Positions 8,669-32,675 of a stretch of DNA of 64,000 nucleotides are shown piece after piece. Source of the DNA: Nitrospirota bacterium. Lineage in GTDB: Bacteria; Nitrospirota; UBA9217. The position numbers and the translations under genes were made by a program. The stretch spans positions 416,001-480,000 of the forward strand of contig CAVVUN010000002.1 of NCBI GenBank assembly GCA_963751455.1, in the 5' to 3' direction. Positions within the stretch are counted from its first letter, which is position 1; every line of letters starts with the position of its first letter. Below the pieces are notes generated by a model that saw nothing but the letters and a program-made list of their open reading frames with translations, did no database searches and had not been told where the DNA came from.

Positions 8669-9101
8669 CTACTGCAATAATGCATCAAACAAGTCCTTCC
8701 ATTCGGGGTTCATGCTATTTACCAGTTCGATCTTTTTCTTGCGAGAACCGCCTTTAATCTGCTTCTCTCTGGCAATTGCCGAGTGCGCATTCTGTCCAAC
8801 TTCATAATAAACAAGTTTGATGATCTCGTAAAAAGTCGTCTCCCCGGTGAAAACCGGGGTCCAGTGGTTATCGAACTTATTGAAAAGACTGGATACCGGC
8901 GTTCGCCGGTATGACGAAATTGGGTGTTTTCTGACTTCTTACGAATGCATCAAGTTTAGAGATATTATATTTTTGGTAAAACCATCTGCTGTTTTTTGTT
9001 TATGCTGATGAACGCGTTCTAATCAGATTATTAGTCACTCCTGTATAGAGAACCGAGTGAATTTTGTTCGTCATAATGTAAACGTAATACTGTTTCTCCA
9101 T
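8669..9101 (-). pseudogene. GIY-YIG nuclease pseudogene
   Basis: manual translation MEKQYYVYIMTN..VLYTGVTNNL..GFT.KYNISKL / VYYE..AIAREKQIKGGSRKKKIELVNSMNPEWKDL; two frameshifts and a MITE insertion. Confidence 0.9.
8819..8951. mobile_element. 133-bp MITE (GATG...CATC ends) carrying a GTCATNCCGG hairpin pair
   Basis: TIRs GATGATCTCGTAAAAAGTC / GACTTCTTACGAATGCATC; AAGTTT duplicated on both sides; removal restores SKLVYY. Confidence 0.85.
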
Positions 9102-12596: not shown

Positions 12597-13931
12597 CTAC
12601 CCGGCCTGACGACTGCTTTGCACAGCCTGGTACAAGCGCTGAACCAGGGCCTGATTGTAGCCATGGGATGTCATGTTGGCAGTAACCCTTCCTCTGATGT
12701 GAAGGCCGAGGAGGTAGAGGTCGCCGATTATGTCCAGTATTTTATGGCGCACGAATTCGTCGGGGTAACGGAGTTCGGTGTTGATGACCTTGCCATCGTA
12801 CATGATGATGTGAGAATGGAGGTAACCACCTCCGACCTTTCCAAGCTTCTGGGCCATTTCGATATTTTCAAACGTGTTAAAGGAGCGGGCAGGGGCTATC
12901 TCCTTTGCAAAAGAACTTTTTTCGGGATTGAATGTAAGGGTCTGTTCGCCTATGGGTGCAGGGTAATCGACCCTCATTGATACCTTGAACCCTTCAAAGG
13001 GCTCGGCATACAGATGCTTTTCATGCCTGTCCTCGTTTCCAACCGCTATCTTCTGGCGGATGACAGCAACCCTGGCGTAGGCGGACTGTTTCTCAACCCC
13101 TGCTTCTTCGATGAGATCGCAAAAATCCTTGGCGGAGCCGTCTATGTTCGGGATCTCTTCATCGACTTTTATAAGAGCGTTCGTTATGCCGTACATGGAA
13201 AGAACCGCCATCAGGTGTTCAATGGTGCGCACGCGCCGCCTGCCGTTGTCCAGCGTGGTGGAGTTCGCAGAGAAGGTCTTTGACGAGGCAGTCTGGGAAT
13301 AGTCCTCAACAGAGGTGATAAGTCCACGGATGGTTTGACCGTCAAGAGTCTGAAAGACAATCCCTTCATTGGTCCCGAGGGGGCTCAGGATGACACCTGT
13401 ATTTCGGCCGCTCAAAAGACCAATGCCGTTAAGGACCACATTCCCTCTGAGGGTGCGCTGACGTTGTGGGGAATCCACTACTTCAACGAGGCCGGGAGGT
13501 ATCGAAAGATCGGTGTTGACTATCTCAAGCCGCGTATCCGAGGGCAGGGTGCCCGCGCCGGTCCCTGAAGGCCGGTGCTTCAGGGCAGACTTCACCTTGT
13601 CGAGTAAAACCTCCAGGTGCAGCGGTTTTTCCAAAAAATCATAGGCGCCGGCCTTGATGGCGGCAACCGCCGCATCGATGCCGGCATGTCCGCTCATCAT
13701 GATGATAGGGAGTGCGGGAAATCGGTCATGCAGACGTTTCAGGAGCTGCATGCCGTCTATGCCGGGAAGCCAGATATCCAGCAGGACAAGAGAAGGCTCC
13801 AGTGTATCGAGCTTCTGCCAAAGGCTCTCCGCATCCGGAAATGAGACGGCCTCATACCCCTCGTCCTTTAGAATGCTCTCTACTGTGGAACAGATGGAAG
13901 CCTCGTCGTCTACAATACAGATAGGTTTCAT
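12597..13931 (-). CDS. lpxC: receiver-domain / UDP-3-O-acyl-GlcNAc deacetylase fusion
   Basis: REC (VDDE, LLDIW, MMSGH, FLEKP) then QRTL..GIGLLSG, TIEHLMA, EIPNIDGSA, EIAPARSF, DEFVRHKILD, SH. Confidence 0.92.
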   Translation of the reverse strand: MKPICIVDDEASICSTVESILKDEGYEAVSFPDAESLWQKLDTLEPSLVLLDIWLPGIDGMQLLKRLHDRFPALPIIMMSGHAGIDAAVAAIKAGAYDFLEKPLHLEVLLDKVKSALKHRPSGTGAGTLPSDTRLEIVNTDLSIPPGLVEVVDSPQRQRTLRGNVVLNGIGLLSGRNTGVILSPLGTNEGIVFQTLDGQTIRGLITSVEDYSQTASSKTFSANSTTLDNGRRRVRTIEHLMAVLSMYGITNALIKVDEEIPNIDGSAKDFCDLIEEAGVEKQSAYARVAVIRQKIAVGNEDRHEKHLYAEPFEGFKVSMRVDYPAPIGEQTLTFNPEKSSFAKEIAPARSFNTFENIEMAQKLGKVGGGYLHSHIIMYDGKVINTELRYPDEFVRHKILDIIGDLYLLGLHIRGRVTANMTSHGYNQALVQRLYQAVQSSRQAG

Positions 13932-19031: not shown

Positions 19032-19263
19032 GGGGTCGGACCACGCTAAAGTCCTGGTTTTCAAATGATATCGTTCCAATAATAGGCATTTTCGAGGCTT
19101 AAAGCCGCCTTTTCAGGCCCGAAAAGCGGTTTGTAAGACGCAGCATCCTCTCGTAGCGCATAACTGCCATCTGTTCCGTACACATCACGGCCCTTGGCCT
19201 TGATTCCAAGCTTCTCTCTTGTAAAGTTTACGAATAACTCGCTGCCTACGGCAATACTCTCGG
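19032..19263 (-). mobile_element. 3' remnant of a second Y1 element (same family as 14921-15283)
   Basis: ESIAVGSE.FV..YALRE..LSLENAYYWNDII; about 65 bp nearly identical to 14921-14987; end GGGGTCGGACCACGCTAAA. Confidence 0.75.
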
Positions 19264-19572
19264 ATGTGCTACTGGAAACAGTGGCGCAGAACAAGGAAGC
19301 GGGTCAGAGAGCTGCTGAAACTCGGCGTGAGCAAGGATAACGCGATATCGGTGGGAATGAGCAGGAAGGGGTACTGGCATCTTGCGAAGACCGAGGCCAT
19401 GAACGTCGGCCTGTCAAATGCATATCTCAAAAGACAAGGGCTTACATCAATCAGAACACTGTGGATCAAGATTTACTATCCGGCTACGGCCCGATAATTT
19501 TCCGCGAATCGCCCGGTGCGGACCCGCACGCCGGGTGGTGTGTGGGGAGGGGCGGCTAAAGACCGCCCCTTA

Positions 19573-21406
19573 GTGCGCCTGAAAGTGCGCAAAGTCAGAG
19601 GGGTGCAAGTCCCCTTCAGGTAGACGTTCACCTGCCTGTAACCGACCGTAACTGCGTCGTCGTGAGACGGGGTGGAGAGCAACGGAAGGTGAACCGTCAG
19701 TCCGTAGGATAACGAAATCGATTCGGCCGGTTGTAACGGCGAGCCTGCTGAGGAATGGCGAAGCCCGGACTCTTCGGAAGAAGAGAAGCCTGTCACGCTG
19801 ATGAGCGTGTTAAAGCGATGACAGGGAGCAACAGGTGGTTGGATACGGAACGATGGGAAGTCATTGCACATGAATCAGGGATATCTGTTCCGGCGAGTGA
19901 CCGTGAACAGAAGTCAGAACCTCCATACGAGCGATGAAGCGCTTGTAATGAGCGTGGAGCAAAGGGAGGCAGGAAGGTAGATGAGCAAAGACCATACAGA
20001 GGGAAAGAAACCGACTTCAGTGGAGAATACGCCTAAACCAGTCGGAGAAACAAAAGCCCAACAATGGGCATGGGTGGAACCCACGGTATGGACGGAGCGC
20101 ATGCTGACGGCCCTCGGCAACGGGGTGAAAGGAGGCAGATGGTATAGTTTGATGGATAAGGTACACTCCCCAGGCAATCTCCAAGCCGCGTGGGCGCGAG
20201 TGCGCGCCAACGGTGGAGCAGCAGGAGTGGACCGCCAAAGCATCTCGGCATTTCAAACCAACGCAGAGAAGCATCTGGACGAACTCGAAGAACGCTTAAA
20301 AGGGAACAGGTACCAAACCCAAGCAGTCAAGCGAGTATGGATACCCAAGCCCGGCAGCACCGAAAAGCGTCCGCTCGGCATTCCGGTCGTCAAAGACCGG
20401 ATCGTCCAGACAGCGCTCAGAAACGTCATCGAACCGATATACGAGAACATCTTCGCTGAACAGAGCTACGGCTTTCGACCGGGGCGCGGCTGCAAAGATG
20501 CGCTCCGGCGCGTAGACGAACTTTTGAAGACAGGCTCCACGTGGGTTGTGGACGCTGACATCAAGAGCTACTTTGACAGCATACCCCATGACAAACTCAT
20601 GCGGGAAGTCGAAGAACAGGTGGCGGATGGAAAGGTGCTGGAACTGATAGCCGGATACCTGAAACAGGGGATCATGGACGGACTCACCGAGTGGGAGCCG
20701 GACAAGGGAACTCCGCAGGGCGCGGTCATCAGTCCTCTCCTGGCCAACATATACCTGAATAAAATCGATCATGCGATGCGGGCCAAAGGTTACGAGATGG
20801 TCAGATACGCCGACGATTTCGTCATCCTTTGTCGCGGTGAAGCCGAAGCGCAGCAGGCGCTCGCCACAGTCAGGGACCTTATCGAAGAACGAGGTCTTAC
20901 GCTTCATCCGGAGAAAACCCGGATAGCCGATGCCAAAGAGCGAGGAGGTTTCGACTTTCTCGGATATCACTTCGAGCGCGGCATGCGGTGGCCGCGTAAG
21001 AAGAGTCTCAACAAGCTTAAAGACACTCTTCGCAAGAAGACGATGCGGAAATCGGGCGTGGATATGGCGACCATCATTAAGGACGTTAACAAAAGCCTAC
21101 GAGGTTGGTTTGAATACTTCAAGCAAAGTCACAGGACGACGTTTCCACGAATAGACAGTTGGCTGCGCATGAGATTGCGGAGCATTCTACGGAAGCGTCA
21201 GAAGCGAAGAGGAAGAGGCCGGGGCGCAGATCATCAACGATGGCCGAATGCCTACTTTAGCACTCAAGGACTGTTCACTCTTACAACAGCCCATGAGATA
21301 GCTCGTCAGTCCCGTTGAGGGGCACTGCCGACTGGAGAGCCGGATGCGGGAGATCCGCACGTCCGGTTCGGAGGGAGGGGAGGCCGCAAGCCTTCCCTAC
21401 CCCTAT
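19573..21406 (+). mobile_element. complete group II intron (non-IIC, probably bacterial class E), inner member of the twintron
   Basis: 5' GTGCG; DV gagagccggatgcg..cgcacgtccggttc (AGC triad); DVI ending ACCCCTAT. Confidence 0.9.
19981..21318 (+). CDS. ltrA: group II intron reverse transcriptase/maturase, no endonuclease domain
   Basis: RPLGIP..DR..Q, SYGFRPGR, DADIKSYFD, GTPQGAVISPLLANIYL, YADD, FDFLG. Confidence 0.95.
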   Translation: MSKDHTEGKKPTSVENTPKPVGETKAQQWAWVEPTVWTERMLTALGNGVKGGRWYSLMDKVHSPGNLQAAWARVRANGGAAGVDRQSISAFQTNAEKHLDELEERLKGNRYQTQAVKRVWIPKPGSTEKRPLGIPVVKDRIVQTALRNVIEPIYENIFAEQSYGFRPGRGCKDALRRVDELLKTGSTWVVDADIKSYFDSIPHDKLMREVEEQVADGKVLELIAGYLKQGIMDGLTEWEPDKGTPQGAVISPLLANIYLNKIDHAMRAKGYEMVRYADDFVILCRGEAEAQQALATVRDLIEERGLTLHPEKTRIADAKERGGFDFLGYHFERGMRWPRKKSLNKLKDTLRKKTMRKSGVDMATIIKDVNKSLRGWFEYFKQSHRTTFPRIDSWLRMRLRSILRKRQKRRGRGRGADHQRWPNAYFSTQGLFTLTTAHEIARQSR

Positions 21407-21437
21407 CCCGATTGGAAGTACGGTATTCCCAATTTTA

Positions 21438-24194
21438 CTACTCTTTGTGAGATCCTGTAGGATCGCTCTTCTTCATGATGTCCTTCAGGAACCCCTCTGC
21501 TTCTGCGGACCTGCCGTTCTTCATCATGACCAGCGCCTTGATCGAGTTCCTTGCCATGTAATCGCGGATCATAAGGATCGGCACCATGGGCGGATGCTTC
21601 CCCATATCTCCTTCGGGCGTTGCATCGTACTTTCCGTTGATGATCTCCTCGCGGGTCCTGTCCAGCTGCTCGTACCACGCCCTCTTGTCAGCCGGCAGCG
21701 CCTTGAACCAGGCGCTTTTCGAACGCGGATAATTGCGATAGTGGTCCCTGATCGCCGTGAAGGTGACGATGGCGCGCTTCCTCTGCTCGGCTGAATACTT
21801 CGGCATTGAGAACTCTCCCATCTCGGCAAGGATCTCGTCGAGGATGAATTCCTGCAACTGCACCGCGTCATCGGTCTTCTTGTCGCCAAGGAACTTGACC
21901 GTCTTGCCGGTAGTTTCGAGCAAATACCCCCGATAGGCTATCATCGCCTGGCTGGCCGTCTCGTTCTGGAGCAGTGTTTGAGGGATGCCTTCCGGCGTCT
22001 TTTCCTCGTTCCCGATGAAGTTGAATTCCCGAGCGCCCGCCTTCTGTAGAATGTCAATTATCTCCGCATTATTGATGTAGCGTGCGCGGCCGAGCGGCGT
22101 TCTATTCTCGCCCTTGATCAGTCGGTTGAGATCGACACCCTTGGTCCCCGCCAACAGCCGGACCATCTCCGGCCTGTTCTGGTTGATATTATGGACCAGC
22201 GGTGTTTCGCCGTACTCGTCCTCCCGGTTAAGGTCTGGACGACGCGACAGGATCTTCTGCGCCAGATCGAGCCCGTATTTGCCCATCCCGGAGTTGTACC
22301 AGCCCATATGCACCAGTGTCTCGCCCTTGTAGTAGGGAACGTTGACGTCGATCTCCTCGCGGTCCAGAAGCATCATGGCGATCTCATACCCGTAGCGCAA
22401 TCGGGAGTGGCGAATGGCCCTATTCAGGTAGTCCCCCGCCGCTGTCCGCTTGTTCACGTCCAGATCGGACCGCGCAAGGAAGAGCTTGACGATTTCAGGC
22501 TGGTCTTGTTCGATCGCCAGGACCATGGGCGTTATCCCCTCCCCGTCCTCCTTGTTGATGTCGATGTCCTTACGCGCGGCCAGGAGCTTCACGAGCTCGA
22601 TATTGGCCGGGTCCGAGGACAGGCGTCCGGGCTTTGGCTCGAACGCGGCATGCAGCAGCGTCTTTCCGTCCTTTGTGACCGTATCCGTCCGCGCCTTCCG
22701 CTCCAGCAGCACCGCGACGCTCTTCTGATCGCCGAGAGCGACAGCGTGGTACAGGGCCGTCCTGCCGTGCTCGTCAACCGCATCCAGGTTCAGGCCCGGA
22801 GCGCCGAACAGCTCAGCCGCGATGTCTACCCGGTGGTTCTGAAGCGCGCGCATGAGCGGTGTCGCTCTCTCCTTGCCCGGCAGGTTCACGTCGATCGCGG
22901 GACCCGCCAATTTATGAGACCTCTGAAGATGATCGTAAAGCGCCTCTTCACCTATGGCCCAGAAGCGTGACAGCGCCTTCACAAAAAGATAATTGTTATC
23001 CTTGTGCAATATCTTTGGCTTGAAGTAGTTATCGTATTTAAGCTTATCCTGCCAGACAGCAGTGGGAAACACCTGATTCTCCCCGGAAAGATCGGGCGCC
23101 AGTTCATAATTCGATAATTTTTTATGCTCGATATATTTCCCGGAGAGAAGGTCGATCATGTCGCAGCCGTTGGTTTTCACAAAGCAGATCTTGTCGTCCA
23201 GAAACTCGACAAAGCGGTATCTGCCGTTCCTGTCGTAGTCCCCTGAATGCGTCTGCACATGCCGGTGGTAATTCCACAATACAGTACCTTTGGAATCGAA
23301 TGCAAGCAGATAGACTTCCTCGCCCTCTGATTCGTAAAAATTCTTGCCGAAAAAGACCATATTGTTGTAGGACAATACGCCTGTTGTCGAGTAATTGAAT
23401 TGCCTGGCTATCGGTATATTGAGCTTCTTTTCCAGATCCTCCATGGCTACGGTCTTGATCAGGCGGCCCGTATCGATCTGCAGGAAAGAGAGGACATTAT
23501 TTTCCCCAACCACAAGCGTGTCATCCGTCACCGTGTAGCCGTTATAATTGATAAACTGGTCCGTAGTGGTCTTTCCCGGTATTTTATAGGAAAGTATCTC
23601 TCTGCCTGTCCACTTGTCAATGGCGCTGAAAACATCCGGGGCGTCTTTCATACGTTTTAGAAAATAGAGGCGGTCCCGGCCAAAGATCGGCTCTCCCCGG
23701 TCAATTTCCCTGTTCCACAGGACCTCGGGATTCTTGACAGGGGCAAACGGACCTTTCTTCTTCGAGGATTTAATTTCGGTATTTTCCGGCTCTCGCCACG
23801 TAAACTGATCCTTCACCTGCGGCATGAACGGCAGATCGCTTTTCAGGAACAGGACAGATTGCGTGTGCTTTTCGTTGTAGCGGTTCTTCGCTACCATGTA
23901 GATCATGTCGGGAGATAACTGCACGATGTGATGAAGCTCCGATTCGACAGTCTCGTAGGGCTCCTCGATGCTTACGACAGGGGCTGCCGATCTGTCAAGG
24001 ATGACGATCCGGTCATTTGCCTTGCTTACCTGGGAAATGGTCGAATCCTTTATCTCGCCCGTGACCAGGGCGATGAGCACGTTTCCCCAGAGTGGCCTGA
24101 CATACTGGACATCTCCCTGGGCCACCATTTCCGAACCGAAGGACACGAAGAAGCCCGAACCGTTTCTTCCTCTGACCGAGGAAGTTCCTTCCAT
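21438..24194 (-). CDS. beta-propeller-like plus ankyrin-repeat protein; probably the 3' part of a 21438-24800 read-through gene
   Basis: ankyrin motifs TPLMRA, GRTALYHA, GKTLLHAA, GITPMVLA, GETPL; same frame as the upstream YARHG ORF. Confidence 0.85.
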   Translation of the reverse strand: MEGTSSVRGRNGSGFFVSFGSEMVAQGDVQYVRPLWGNVLIALVTGEIKDSTISQVSKANDRIVILDRSAAPVVSIEEPYETVESELHHIVQLSPDMIYMVAKNRYNEKHTQSVLFLKSDLPFMPQVKDQFTWREPENTEIKSSKKKGPFAPVKNPEVLWNREIDRGEPIFGRDRLYFLKRMKDAPDVFSAIDKWTGREILSYKIPGKTTTDQFINYNGYTVTDDTLVVGENNVLSFLQIDTGRLIKTVAMEDLEKKLNIPIARQFNYSTTGVLSYNNMVFFGKNFYESEGEEVYLLAFDSKGTVLWNYHRHVQTHSGDYDRNGRYRFVEFLDDKICFVKTNGCDMIDLLSGKYIEHKKLSNYELAPDLSGENQVFPTAVWQDKLKYDNYFKPKILHKDNNYLFVKALSRFWAIGEEALYDHLQRSHKLAGPAIDVNLPGKERATPLMRALQNHRVDIAAELFGAPGLNLDAVDEHGRTALYHAVALGDQKSVAVLLERKARTDTVTKDGKTLLHAAFEPKPGRLSSDPANIELVKLLAARKDIDINKEDGEGITPMVLAIEQDQPEIVKLFLARSDLDVNKRTAAGDYLNRAIRHSRLRYGYEIAMMLLDREEIDVNVPYYKGETLVHMGWYNSGMGKYGLDLAQKILSRRPDLNREDEYGETPLVHNINQNRPEMVRLLAGTKGVDLNRLIKGENRTPLGRARYINNAEIIDILQKAGAREFNFIGNEEKTPEGIPQTLLQNETASQAMIAYRGYLLETTGKTVKFLGDKKTDDAVQLQEFILDEILAEMGEFSMPKYSAEQRKRAIVTFTAIRDHYRNYPRSKSAWFKALPADKRAWYEQLDRTREEIINGKYDATPEGDMGKHPPMVPILMIRDYMARNSIKALVMMKNGRSAEAEGFLKDIMKKSDPTGSHKE

Positions 24195-24203
24195 AACGCC
24201 TCA
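24161..24203 (-). promoter_or_regulatory. candidate bacterial SECIS after an in-frame TGA
   Basis: TGA GG CGTT ATGGAAGGAA CTTCCTC GGTCA GAGGAAG A AACG. Confidence 0.55.
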
Positions 24204-24800
24204 GCATCCCGTATAATTTCTCGTTATGCTGATTCCCATGTCAGGCAGGCTGACCGGTCCTTCTCCTTCATTCGGAAACTGGATCTGCTCGCCCAGTTGC
24301 TCGTGGTTGTGGTACTTGACGAATTCAACGCGCCCAAGGGCTTCAATATTTCCTTTTTCAACTGCGGTGAGGCTCGCCTCCGTGAATCCCGGATCAGGTT
24401 TGTACCAGGACTGCGACGTAAAATAAGAGAACAGGTCTGCGGAAGAGAATGTCCTGCCGTGCTGCGCATAGATCTCGTTGCGTAGCAGTCTCAGGCGCGG
24501 GTAATCAAGCAGGATCAGTCGCCATAGCTCGAGCCGACGCTGCAGTTGTCCCCGGAGATATTGATAAACCGCCTCTTGTTCCTGTTCTTCCAAGCCGCCT
24601 ATTTTTACATAAACAGGTCCCCTCGCCTCAAGGGCTTTCAGGGCTTCCTGGACATACGTGTGCAGTTTTTGATTCGAATCAATAGGTTCAGACTGAGAAG
24701 CAAAAGCAGGGGAAGGATAAGTAAGGAAGGAAAACATTGCCGGCACACATATGATCAAGCACAACCAGATATGCAACACACTAAGCGATCTAGATAACAT
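24201..24800 (-). CDS. exported YARHG-domain protein; probably the 5' part of the read-through gene
   Basis: signal peptide; LRLLRNEIYAQHGRTF..LFSYF..QSWY..LTAVEKGNI; GGAGG RBS. Confidence 0.85.
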   Translation of the reverse strand: MLSRSLSVLHIWLCLIICVPAMFSFLTYPSPAFASQSEPIDSNQKLHTYVQEALKALEARGPVYVKIGGLEEQEQEAVYQYLRGQLQRRLELWRLILLDYPRLRLLRNEIYAQHGRTFSSADLFSYFTSQSWYKPDPGFTEASLTAVEKGNIEALGRVEFVKYHNHEQLGEQIQFPNEGEGPVSLPDMGISITRNYTGC

Positions 24801-24853
24801 GACACCTCCGTAAGTTTGAGTGTGGAGATCTTAGGATATCATACTTATGCCTC

Positions 24854-24912
24854 TACGAACGACGAGCTGAGCCCCGCGCCGTAGAGCGCGGGACTCGAAC
24901 GACTTGTTAAGT
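24854..24912 (-). other. attC site
   Basis: top strand ACTTAAC ..gagtcccgcgc tctacg gcgcggggctc.. GTTCGTA; upstream stop codon overlaps R''. Confidence 0.75.
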
Positions 24913-30780: not shown

Positions 30781-31004
30781 TTGATGCATTTCTGCAACTT
30801 TTCATTAATCGCGAGTATATTTTATGCTTTCCGGCATGTCAAGATAAAGTGTTGACTATTCAGGTTACTCGCAGCGATAATTCTCTCGAATAAGAAATCT
30901 GGATTGCCGCGTCGCTTTGCTCCTCGCAATGACGAATAAAAAACAGAAACATTTGTCACCTCGTAAGGTTGAGATTTCATGAGCATTATGGAGGGCCGGC
31001 GGCC

Positions 31005-32675
31005 ATGCAACCTATACCCAAAGATATTCAGGTTAAATTTGATGACATGCTGAAACAGCGGAATGTCCCTCTGTTCTCCCGGGCCGATTACCGTAAGTGG
31101 CTTCTATACTTTCTTGACTTTCGTGCCAAATATCCGCTTCCTGATGCCAAACCGGATCAAGTGAAGCTGTTCGCCGACAAGCTGCGGTCGAAGAATCAAA
31201 CCATCGTGCAAGTAGAGCAGGCTGCGGATGCGATTTCGCTGTTCTTCGCGTCTCAATCGACAAAAAGCACCGGAAGTGCAGGTCTTAAACCCATCCCCCT
31301 CTCCGTCTTCCCCTTGAAGGGGGAGATGAGTGAGCGGACAGCCTTCCACTTGAAGGGGGCGATGAATGAGAGGCTAGTGTCTCCCCCAAAAAGAGAGGCG
31401 AATAAGAGGGAGGTCTACCTGGCCACCGGGCAAAGGGTGTCCACAGCGCCTTTGCCTCCGGTAAAATACGATCGAGCCCGGGAAGCAGAATTGAAGAAGG
31501 AATCCGGCATGGTCTGCGAACCGCCGGCCTCTTCCATGCCCTTCGCACCGCGGCTCAGAAGCGGTAAGCAATACGATGAATGGCGTTGTCTTCGAAAGAC
31601 CGCGTCTCCGGCATGGGACAATGTAATAGCGCTGCTTGCTGACGAGATCAAGATCCGGCATTACTCCCGGAAGACGCTTAAGCACTACGCTGACTGGATC
31701 CGCAAGTTTCAGAGCTACTTGAGACATAAAGACCCTGCGGAGCTGTCGTCAAAAGATGTTAAGGCGTATCTCACCTTTCTCGCGGTGGATTGCAAAGTGT
31801 CTTCATCGACGCAGAATCAGGCTTTCAACGCCTTGTTGTTTCTGTACCGGCACGTTCTCAAAAAAGATTTCGGAATCCATAACGACATCCCGCGCGCGAA
31901 GAAATCAAATTACATCCCTGTGGTTCTTTCCCGGCAGGAAATCGATGCAGTTTTGCAAAATCTCCACCATCCGTTCCGGCTCGTTGCTCAACTCCAGTAC
32001 GGCTGCGGACTTCGCATTTCGGAAGGCTGTAAACTGCGGGTCAAGGATTTCAATTTCGACACAGGGTTGCTCTCTGTCCGGGGGAAAGGTGAAAAGACAC
32101 GGACCGTGCCTATACCGGAGAGGCTCGTTCCAGAACTGCAGGCCCAATTAGAATCCGTAAAGAAACTTCATGATGAGGACATCAAGGCGGGATTTGCCGG
32201 TGTATTTCTAGACGATCAACTTGAAAAGAAGTATCCGAAAGCCGCGAAAGACCTCGTCTGGCAGCCCCGCGACTTTGCATCCCAGGCTTCAGCCAAAGCG
32301 GGATGCGCCGTAGTCCGCGGGAGGTCGCTCGTGATTTTCGGAGCCGTTGGCTCCTGCTGAAGGAAGCTCCTCTGGTTTTTCCCGCAGGAATCGCTCACCT
32401 TCATCGCGCAGAATAAGCAGCGGCGGCGGTATCATCTTCGTGACTCGCACGTCCAGGAGGCGCTGAGCGAAGCTGTCAGAAAGGCGAGGCTCACCAAGCG
32501 CGTCACGTCCCACACCTTCCGTCACTCATTCGCTACACATCTCTTGCAGGCAGGTTACGATCTTCGCACGATTCAGACTCTACTCGGCCATGCCGATATC
32601 AGAACGACAATGATCTACACGCACTGCCTTCCGGGCAAGGAGATGAAAGAAGTAAAGAGTCCGCTGGATTTCTGA
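31005..32675 (+). pseudogene. intI: integron integrase interrupted by a 108-bp insert with an in-frame TGA
   Basis: HYSRKT, STQNQAFNALLFLY, YGCGLRISE, GKGEK, LEKKYP..WQ | [30 protein letters not shown]. Confidence 0.92.

Follow-up and report, generated by a model that had tools for sequence, protein, structure and literature searches.

A predicted selenoprotein of an uncatalogued family in an integron-cassette setting of a Nitrospirota bacterium

The DNA analysed here (the window) is a stretch of 64,000 nucleotides (nt) from a Nitrospirota bacterium of the UBA9217 lineage (assembly GCA_963751455.1, contig CAVVUN010000002.1, positions 416,001 to 480,000 of the forward strand). All plain coordinates refer to positions in this window; G000 denotes the host assembly and G030 the genome of another genus. 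On the minus strand, positions 24800-21438 form a single frame of 1120 amino acids (aa) with one TGA only, at codon 200 (24203-24201), and the open reading frames (ORFs) of 199 and 918 aa lie as listed on either side of it. An earlier sequence-only reading had described two ORFs in one frame parted by one TGA, which was confirmed by the 1120-aa translation. In G000, the junction reads ITRNYTGC-TGA-GVMEGTSSVRGRN (G198-C199-U200-G201, with U for selenocysteine, Sec). Read-through of this TGA as Sec, in a gene of integron-cassette origin, is considered highly probable, and the most likely product is a predicted exported selenoprotein of 1120 aa from a family outside the current catalogue. An exported selenoprotein of an unrecognised type had been proposed before, and this is supported in silico by the conservation of the TGA and its hairpin, by homologues with G-C-C-G at this position and by the sel genes of the host.

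The start signals belong to the first ORF. Its ribosome-binding site (RBS) pairs with the host anti-Shine-Dalgarno (anti-SD) sequence at -10.1 kcal/mol, against -5.6 kcal/mol for the Shine-Dalgarno (SD) sequence of the internal ATG (Met203), which is equalled or bettered by 14% of 3,208 sampled internal ATGs. The N-terminal hydropathy (KD15) is 2.43 for the full protein versus 0.97 for the second ORF started at Met203, and an AFA/S motif is present. A strong RBS and a signal peptide had been ascribed to the first ORF only, and both ascriptions hold, the latter as judged from hydropathy. The full protein has a hydrophobic N-terminus, as do most homologues; it is weak in P0011 and absent in P0021 and in the Met203 ORF. 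Export of the 1120-aa product via its signal peptide is predicted.

Multiple lines of evidence point to conservation of the TGA. The whole gene is found in G030, one of 61 related genomes, with 71% identity over the query (aa 81-600), a TGA at the same codon and an identical 19-nt hairpin, so that the TGA and hairpin, proposed earlier as a check in homologues, are both kept in another genus. Between G000 and G030, the synonymous divergence (dS) is 0.72, 1.55 and 0.43 for the N-terminal, core and ankyrin parts, respectively, and the ratio of nonsynonymous to synonymous divergence (dN/dS) is 0.24, 0.13 and 0.26. These values point to purifying selection on both sides of the TGA and therefore exclude a pseudogene. 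A third allele is present in contigs from two sediment runs and differs near the junction only at third codon positions (6-7 changes), with the TGA and the stem untouched; contig X3 bridges the TGA codon, and X2 reaches only 29 nt beyond it, below the 31-nt standard. Nine proteins matched the 199-aa ORF at E <= 1e-20, and seven of these are family members (including the query itself and G030). These N-terminal ORFs are 58-87% identical to the query (self aside), and all seven end at RNYTGC; the two other matches were set aside as unrelated multi-YARHG proteins. The gene is present in 2 of 64 genomes of the host family and in 2 of 401 sampled genomes of the phylum (G000 and G030 only) and is a rare accessory gene.

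Ten uninterrupted homologues were recovered, and the search for Cys at the TGA position, also proposed earlier, found G-C-C-G in six of them (P0005, P0006, P0009, P0010, P0011 and P0021), the three nearest included. In addition, a single Cys of P0014 aligns with the Sec position, in an alignment with gaps. Gly, one of the residues that had been associated with a simple nonsense mutation, occurs at this column only in the distant P0012 and L089, and the three nearest outgroups have Cys; the selenoprotein reading survives this comparison. In a midpoint-rooted tree of 16 rows (P0021 left out; P0160 and P0004 taken as one gene by inference), the TGA-bearing sequences cluster together (100/100) and share a wider group, also 100/100, with the Cys forms P0005, P0011 and P0006, and a single Cys-to-Sec change would be the simplest account of the family history. 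Ankyrin repeats are seen only in the TGA clade. The CC-free member L089 (L089:593-2935, 780 aa, low G+C) was found with query A4 among 80 loci of metagenome contigs and was the only family member there; its gene lies between HicAB-like fragments (named by eye) and a REP-type transposase-like ORF. Query A3 gave no match in viral or in metagenome contigs. A scan of genome contigs with query A2 gave 56 loci, none above E 3e-11, which are generic YARHG matches and none of which fits the Sec-domain HMM. No longer proteins with the P0021 domain were found in a search for them, which is weak evidence.

The arms of the hairpin behind the TGA lie at 24184-24178 and 24172-24166, and both this upper stem and a lower CGUU/AACG pairing are in the minimum free energy (MFE) fold; the 7-bp stem with a GGTCA loop beginning 23 nt past the TGA is as originally described. 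In the published model of bacterial Sec insertion sequences (bSECIS), the loop has 3-9 nt, the stem 4-16 bp, a G stands in loop positions 1-2, the spacing is 16-37 nt and the MFE is <= -7.5 (PMC13188914). All four published-model criteria apply to the candidate hairpin (loop 5 nt, stem 7 bp, GG, spacing 23 nt, -9.8 kcal/mol). The specificity of the hairpin comes from its GGUCN loop, since such pentaloops on at least 6 bp stand behind only 72 of 199,132 genomic TGAs (32 with at least 7 bp). The SelD and FdhA SECIS elements of the host likewise have a GGUCN pentaloop on a stem of 6-7 bp, and the loop recurs in a rhodanese, a MerB-like protein and two small thioredoxin-like proteins. Among 10,103 in-frame host TGAs, eight are followed by a GGUCN hairpin of at least 6 bp, namely those of SelD, FdhA, a rhodanese, a MerB-like protein, a small thioredoxin-like protein, the candidate gene and two spurious-looking frames; six of the eight are thus plausible selenoproteins, the candidate counted, the rhodanese, MerB-like and thioredoxin-like names being readings of the sequence by eye and not family scans. 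TSSVRGR, the stretch that the hairpin encodes, is identical in all three C-terminal halves of the TGA clade and variable among the Cys forms. The seven stem codons have no synonymous change in G030, whereas codons 202, 204, 205, 214 and 215 do change. Taken alone, the hairpin is weak to modest evidence for Sec.

The host carries the genes for Sec decoding. In G000, selA, selB, a canonical selC (C1:369631-369729) and a TGA-containing selD (C2:129959-130880, split over two frames) are present, so that all four genes named in the earlier reading were found. Within the host family, 31 of 32 high-quality genomes carry selB. The broken sel genes are likely indel errors in the assembly. Global recoding of TGA (code 4/25) was rejected, as prfB is present and TGA is a common stop, terminating 618 of 1,629 long ORFs. 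Further candidates were observed in this genome. Two small proteins (G000 C2:128600-128896 and C2:117333-117692, plus strand) have M-N-D-P-M-G-K-x-U and a later PPCPS motif with a CCGCC-GGTCG-GGCGG hairpin on both, one of them 1.3 kb upstream of selD, and are likely selenoproteins. The MerB-like read-through ORF (C6:115585-116076, minus strand) has WFAQ-U-GFE and a GGTCT hairpin, with QU where SaoL is described with CU. An exported-looking ORF (C15:451655-453127, minus strand) has a CxxCH motif, a rhodanese-like domain, YCAGMT-U-AMS and a GGTCG hairpin.

The structure of the Sec-bearing part was modelled with AF2 for aa 35-345, with Cys in place of Sec and 19 sequences (pLDDT 87.3, pTM 0.84). 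The model has a helical YARHG part followed by an all-beta domain, in which C199-U200 lies in the turn between strands aa 190-197 and aa 204-210, so that a stop at the TGA would split a beta-hairpin within one modelled domain. YARHG and the Sec-bearing domain form a unit, because P0011, P0017 and P0021 end shortly past the latter. Foldseek with the Sec domain found nothing at E <= 0.001, and an ESM Atlas search gave unnamed clusters with a best score of 0.90. The top range of VIA-align for this model was PliI (Z 6.8), the YARHG domain of lpg2210 (6.7), Tsi1 (5.9), DUF4738 (5.9) and CarG (5.5). In the second beta region, PQQ_2 matches were seen in five of ten proteins scanned, above the cut-off in P0009 and P0012 and otherwise below it, and superposition gave no closed propeller for the P0005 model (TM <= 0.33, rmsd ~24; low-confidence linker). 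The NCBIfam 20 scan gave no model for the protein, only ankyrin and BamB matches below the cut-off, and no flavin (FAD/NADPH) domain was found in the family scan of the candidate. The only cysteine-type residues of the mature chain are C199, U200, C539 and C546.

The read-through ATG lies ~60 nt past the crossover of an attC site, in a cassette of ~3.45 kb. The 53-bp core of this site (24912-24853) is common to many sediment contigs with differing flanks, one of which runs into an intron start at 24907, and a second copy is present at G000 C1:396227. The site was read from its boxes and from contig loose ends; it was missed by an automated attC scan because its R boxes are unpaired in the MFE fold. 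The alignment of five attC sites is poor. The array contains co-oriented ORFs, attC-like hairpins and oppositely oriented group II introns, with DUF6391 and NPCBM cassettes and introns as neighbours of the candidate gene, and further intI matches occur elsewhere in the G000 genome. The G030 copy has an attC-like hairpin upstream (8866-8925), adjoins a transposase and small ORFs, and is followed by an R''-like CTACGAAC (L030:12349) with no hairpin. This CTACGAAC is exactly complementary to GTTCGTAG, the R' box (24853-24860) ahead of the G000 copy. A cassette origin of the gene is likely from these sequence features.

Downstream of the gene in G000, a truncated intron (~19260-19572 and 21407-21412) lies in an attC R'' box and is itself interrupted, six bases from its 3' end, by the full intron (19573-21406). 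In the integrase gene, a ~105-bp repeat (32265-32369; 75% like five other copies in the genome) is inserted in frame and brings a TGA stop at 32358-32360. Elsewhere in the window, LpxC is fused behind a response-regulator receiver domain (12597-13931, minus strand). The features of the locus are listed in Table 1.

Table 1. Features of the candidate selenoprotein gene and its surroundings, in window coordinates
Feature	Position	Strand	Basis or remark
Read-through coding sequence, 1120 aa, predicted Sec200	21438..24800	-	single TGA, homologue with same TGA, dN/dS
In-frame TGA	24201..24203	-	same in G030 and sediment allele; Cys here in nearest homologues
SD sequence GGAGGT of true start	24804..24809	-	sequence, anti-SD energy
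Predicted Sec-pathway signal peptide, aa 1-34, ..PAFA/SQ	24699..24800	-	hydropathy, inference
Internal ATG (Met203), start of annotated 918-aa ORF	24192..24194	-	weak SD; not kept in Cys homologues
bSECIS upper hairpin CTTCCTC-GGTCA-GAGGAAG, loop 23 nt past UGA, -9.8 kcal/mol	24166..24184	-	fold, loop scan, model
YARHG domain, aa 102-158, PF13308	24327..24497	-	Pfam; VIA match to lpg2210 YARHG, Z 6.7, rmsd 2.1
Sec-bearing all-beta domain, ~aa 182-320, three sheets, partial-propeller-like	23841..24257	-	AF2 model, fold search
Second beta region, BamB/PQQ_2-like propeller blades, ~aa 355-625	22926..23738	-	P0005 model, Foldseek BamB matches
Ankyrin repeats, ~aa 633-935	21996..22904	-	Pfam; TGA clade only
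C-terminal region without family match, ~aa 940-1120	21441..21983	-	family scan
Upstream attC, R'' ACTTAAC, L'' GTTCGAG, L' CTCAGC, R' GTTCGTA; crossover ~24860 = cassette 5' edge	24853..24912	-	boxes, sediment contigs
R''-like half CTTCCA of cassette's own attC, intron-cut	21413..21418	-	inference from IIC-attC biology
Group II intron, reverse transcriptase at 19981-21318	19573..21406	+	nested in truncated second intron
Integron integrase, at the head of the array and divergent from it, interrupted	30969..32669	+	TIGR02249 351 bits over two pieces

Multiple observations weigh against a cassette-borne selenoprotein. For the hairpin, the upper stem of 378 of the 10,103 in-frame host TGAs also passes the published bSECIS model, and a generic G-loop stem of at least 7 bp stands behind 758 of them. 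The hairpin region folds no better than shuffled sequence (z -0.47 to -1.16), and folding energy was dropped as SECIS evidence. The lower CGTT/AACG stem of the sequence-only reading is present in the fold and is not conserved, GTT being GTC in G030 and in the sediment allele. The absence of synonymous change in the stem is not significant by itself (0 of 7 against 33%, P ~0.06) and was likewise dropped as support; 31 of 199 windows of identical residues elsewhere are also identical in DNA, and no compensatory change was observed. The stop codon is seen in DNA for two of the seven truncated ORFs and one allele, P0008 and P0157-P0160 being protein-only, and the GCCG of the six homologues is known from protein records only, not from DNA codons. 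The CC pair is missing in 4 of the 10 uninterrupted homologues (GG in P0012, MA in P0017 and AG in L089), so that it is dispensable in part of the family. The sel genes are not all in one piece, with selD of G000 in two frames and selA, selB and selD of G030 in pieces. Fold matches are middling (best Z 6.8, none >= 8), with propeller fragments among them. Finally, the cassette's own attC is incomplete, its remainder not having been found downstream of the gene in G000 beyond the R''-like half before the nested group II introns; intI is interrupted by an insertion with an in-frame stop, and no full intI match is present in G030 (a 71%-complete genome). Placement of both ORFs in one cassette, as first proposed, is clear at the upstream attC and reduced to this half site at the other end; the mobility claimed with it is putative, and present mobility is doubtful.

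Other explanations of the TGA are less probable. The locus could hold two separate, translationally coupled genes: the first would encode an exported YARHG protein of 199 aa, and translation would restart at Met203 to give a cytoplasmic ankyrin protein of 918 aa, the family having split once. The ATG 6 nt past the TGA is kept in G000, G030 and P0004, with GAGG 4 nt before it and overlapping the stop, and ankyrin repeats are commonly cytoplasmic. This account is nevertheless very unlikely, given that the SD is weak, that the split would fall within the modelled beta-hairpin of one domain, and that the break coincides exactly with the codon at which the nearest homologues have Cys, with a host-type SECIS behind it; moreover, the ten homologues are single-chain and Met203 is not conserved in the Cys forms. 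A Cys codon could have become TGA by nonsense mutation or sequencing error, which takes one change (TGY to TGA), and there are other breaks in the assembly (selD and intI). This explanation is practically negligible, given that the TGA is shared by an independent allele and by G030, at dS 0.4-1.5, that selection is purifying on either side, and that seven out of seven ORFs stop at one residue.

The UGA could also be read mostly as Cys, or as Cys or Sec depending on selenium supply, possibly alongside Sec. In selC* tRNACys, U73 occurs with GCA or UCA anticodons, and UGA can be suppressed as Cys (PMC5389517). A second UCA-anticodon tRNA with a U73 discriminator and an unusual cloverleaf is present in G000 (C13:3947-4041, minus strand) and resembles selC* tRNACys(UCA); in addition, the host selD looks frameshifted. 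Set against this are the intact canonical selC, selA and selB, the lack of a second selB above the cut-off in G000, and the source of this tRNA, which lies on a contig of 9.4 kb (C13), belongs to an assembly with contamination of 5.4% and was identified by eye; decoding mainly as Cys has a similarly slim chance. This tRNA directly follows a YedF/SirA-like ORF (named by eye) and a rhodanese-like ORF, and several ORFs on C13 also look frameshifted. The earlier statement that the protein would be full-length only with selenium or in a Sec-decoding host is uncertain, as such a tRNA could insert Cys.

For Sec insertion, SelB-GTP-Sec-tRNA would bind the GGUCA loop 23 nt downstream and insert Sec200, after which the signal peptide would direct the 1120-aa chain to the periplasm; failed read-through (termination) would yield a 199-aa YARHG stub. 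The family ancestor may have had G-C-C-G in a beta-hairpin turn. One lineage would then have exchanged the second Cys for Sec and acquired ankyrin repeats, with the codons that follow (TSSVRGR) becoming fixed as a SECIS; cassette transfer may subsequently have spread the gene among hosts of a family in which nearly all members decode Sec. YARHG would keep the protein near the wall or the outer-membrane lipid, and C199-U200, in an exposed loop of a Tsi1/PliI-like partial propeller, would form a vicinal Se-S ring through which the protein binds or reacts with an envelope partner, without thioredoxin-type catalysis. A Se-S ring is said to close more readily than a Cys-Cys ring. This function, a contact of an envelope-binding or inhibitory protein, is proposed tentatively and may well be wrong, although it is favoured over metal chelation or catalysis; the pair is dispensable in the four relatives, and no further ligand residues are conserved. 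Given Sec read-through, chelation of a soft metal or organometal (Hg, Cu, As) by the Cys-Sec pair in the periplasm, without a ring-shaped contact, has been suggested for CU proteins of other bacteria but is unlikely here. The catalogued CU motifs are largely in metal-related families (SaoL, HgcA, MbdU, SaoB and SaoC), and the host has the MerB-like selenoprotein candidate; there is, however, no third conserved Cys/His ligand in the Sec domain, no metal-resistance gene next to the cassette and no NCBIfam match to these five families. A more elaborate proposal is a decidedly long shot: a cassette-spread, periplasmic, immunity-like inhibitor in which the Cys-Sec loop on a YARHG-tethered, Tsi1-like partial propeller would trap the catalytic Cys of incoming wall hydrolases, with the UGA as a selenium-dependent switch between stub and full-length protein and a selC*-type tRNA as Cys fallback.

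The likeness to Tsi1 is a lead and not an assignment. Tsi1, an immunity protein with a partial beta-propeller fold, pushes a loop between two of its strands into a wall hydrolase that depends on Cys (PMC3391265). The Sec domain model aligns with PliI (Z 6.8, rmsd 4.2, 96 of 122 residues), Tsi1 (Z 5.9, rmsd 4.1, 120 of 147) and CarG (Z 5.5), all of them periplasmic protective proteins, with 7-12% identity; Z values under 8 may reflect a common arrangement alone, and none of the three is known as a selenoprotein. No cognate effector gene was found among the neighbours in G000 or G030. YARHG domains are described as nearly always extracellular, with proposed binding near peptidoglycan or outer-membrane lipid (PMC3355149, PMC3848476). 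As predicted for the candidate, YARHG-domain proteins are exported, modular and carry a signal peptide; in the candidate, YARHG is N-terminal, before the beta and ankyrin domains. The family also resembles PQQ alcohol dehydrogenases and BamB in its predicted propeller blades and vicinal CC, with no dehydrogenase family match; XoxF has a vicinal Cys104-Cys105 (PMC13573614). The array resembles those of group IIC-attC introns, which lie in the attC bottom strand, opposite to the cassette genes (PMC3001079), in its compact ORF and opposite introns, and differs by its ~3.45-kb cassette with a recoded gene.

No YARHG, propeller or ankyrin family is present among the 119 selenoprotein families catalogued in the whole of Table 1 of PMC13188914. 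The protein is regarded as a new selenoprotein family, its recoding being strongly supported in silico; outside this comparison lie the BSepDB family list and two candidate lists cited in that paper, which could hold the family. In the open-access literature, no description was found of Sec in a YARHG protein or, by titles and abstract starts, of a selenoprotein in an integron cassette or mobile element. As described in 10.1101/2022.07.06.499078, the CU selenoproteins SaoL, SaoB, SaoC and HgcA resemble the candidate in that their database proteins are all truncated at the aligned Cys before the UGA and have CC homologues, and in a 7-bp G-loop SECIS; SaoB and SaoC are exported, as predicted here. 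Compared with that description, the candidate differs in its unrelated fold, lack of an NCBIfam match or a conserved operon, multi-domain length of 1120 aa and cassette location. Mammalian thioredoxin reductase is a flavoenzyme with G-C-U-G at its C-terminus, able to form a vicinal selenenylsulfide. The candidate shares this tetrapeptide, but at residues 198-201 of 1120, in a beta-turn and with no FAD/NADPH domain; the likeness pointed out earlier is thus superficial.

If true, the 119 known families, among which redox-enzyme folds predominate, would be joined by a selenoprotein family of another fold, large and exported, whose Sec lies in an internal beta-turn. Cys was apparently replaced by Sec once and recently, and the available Cys and Cys-free relatives make the Sec-versus-Cys question testable in one scaffold. 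A recoded gene with its SECIS in the coding sequence could ride an integron array, and its expression would therefore depend on the SelB of the recipient. Large, rare accessory selenoproteins have probably been overlooked, because gene callers split every TGA-bearing copy seen here in two.

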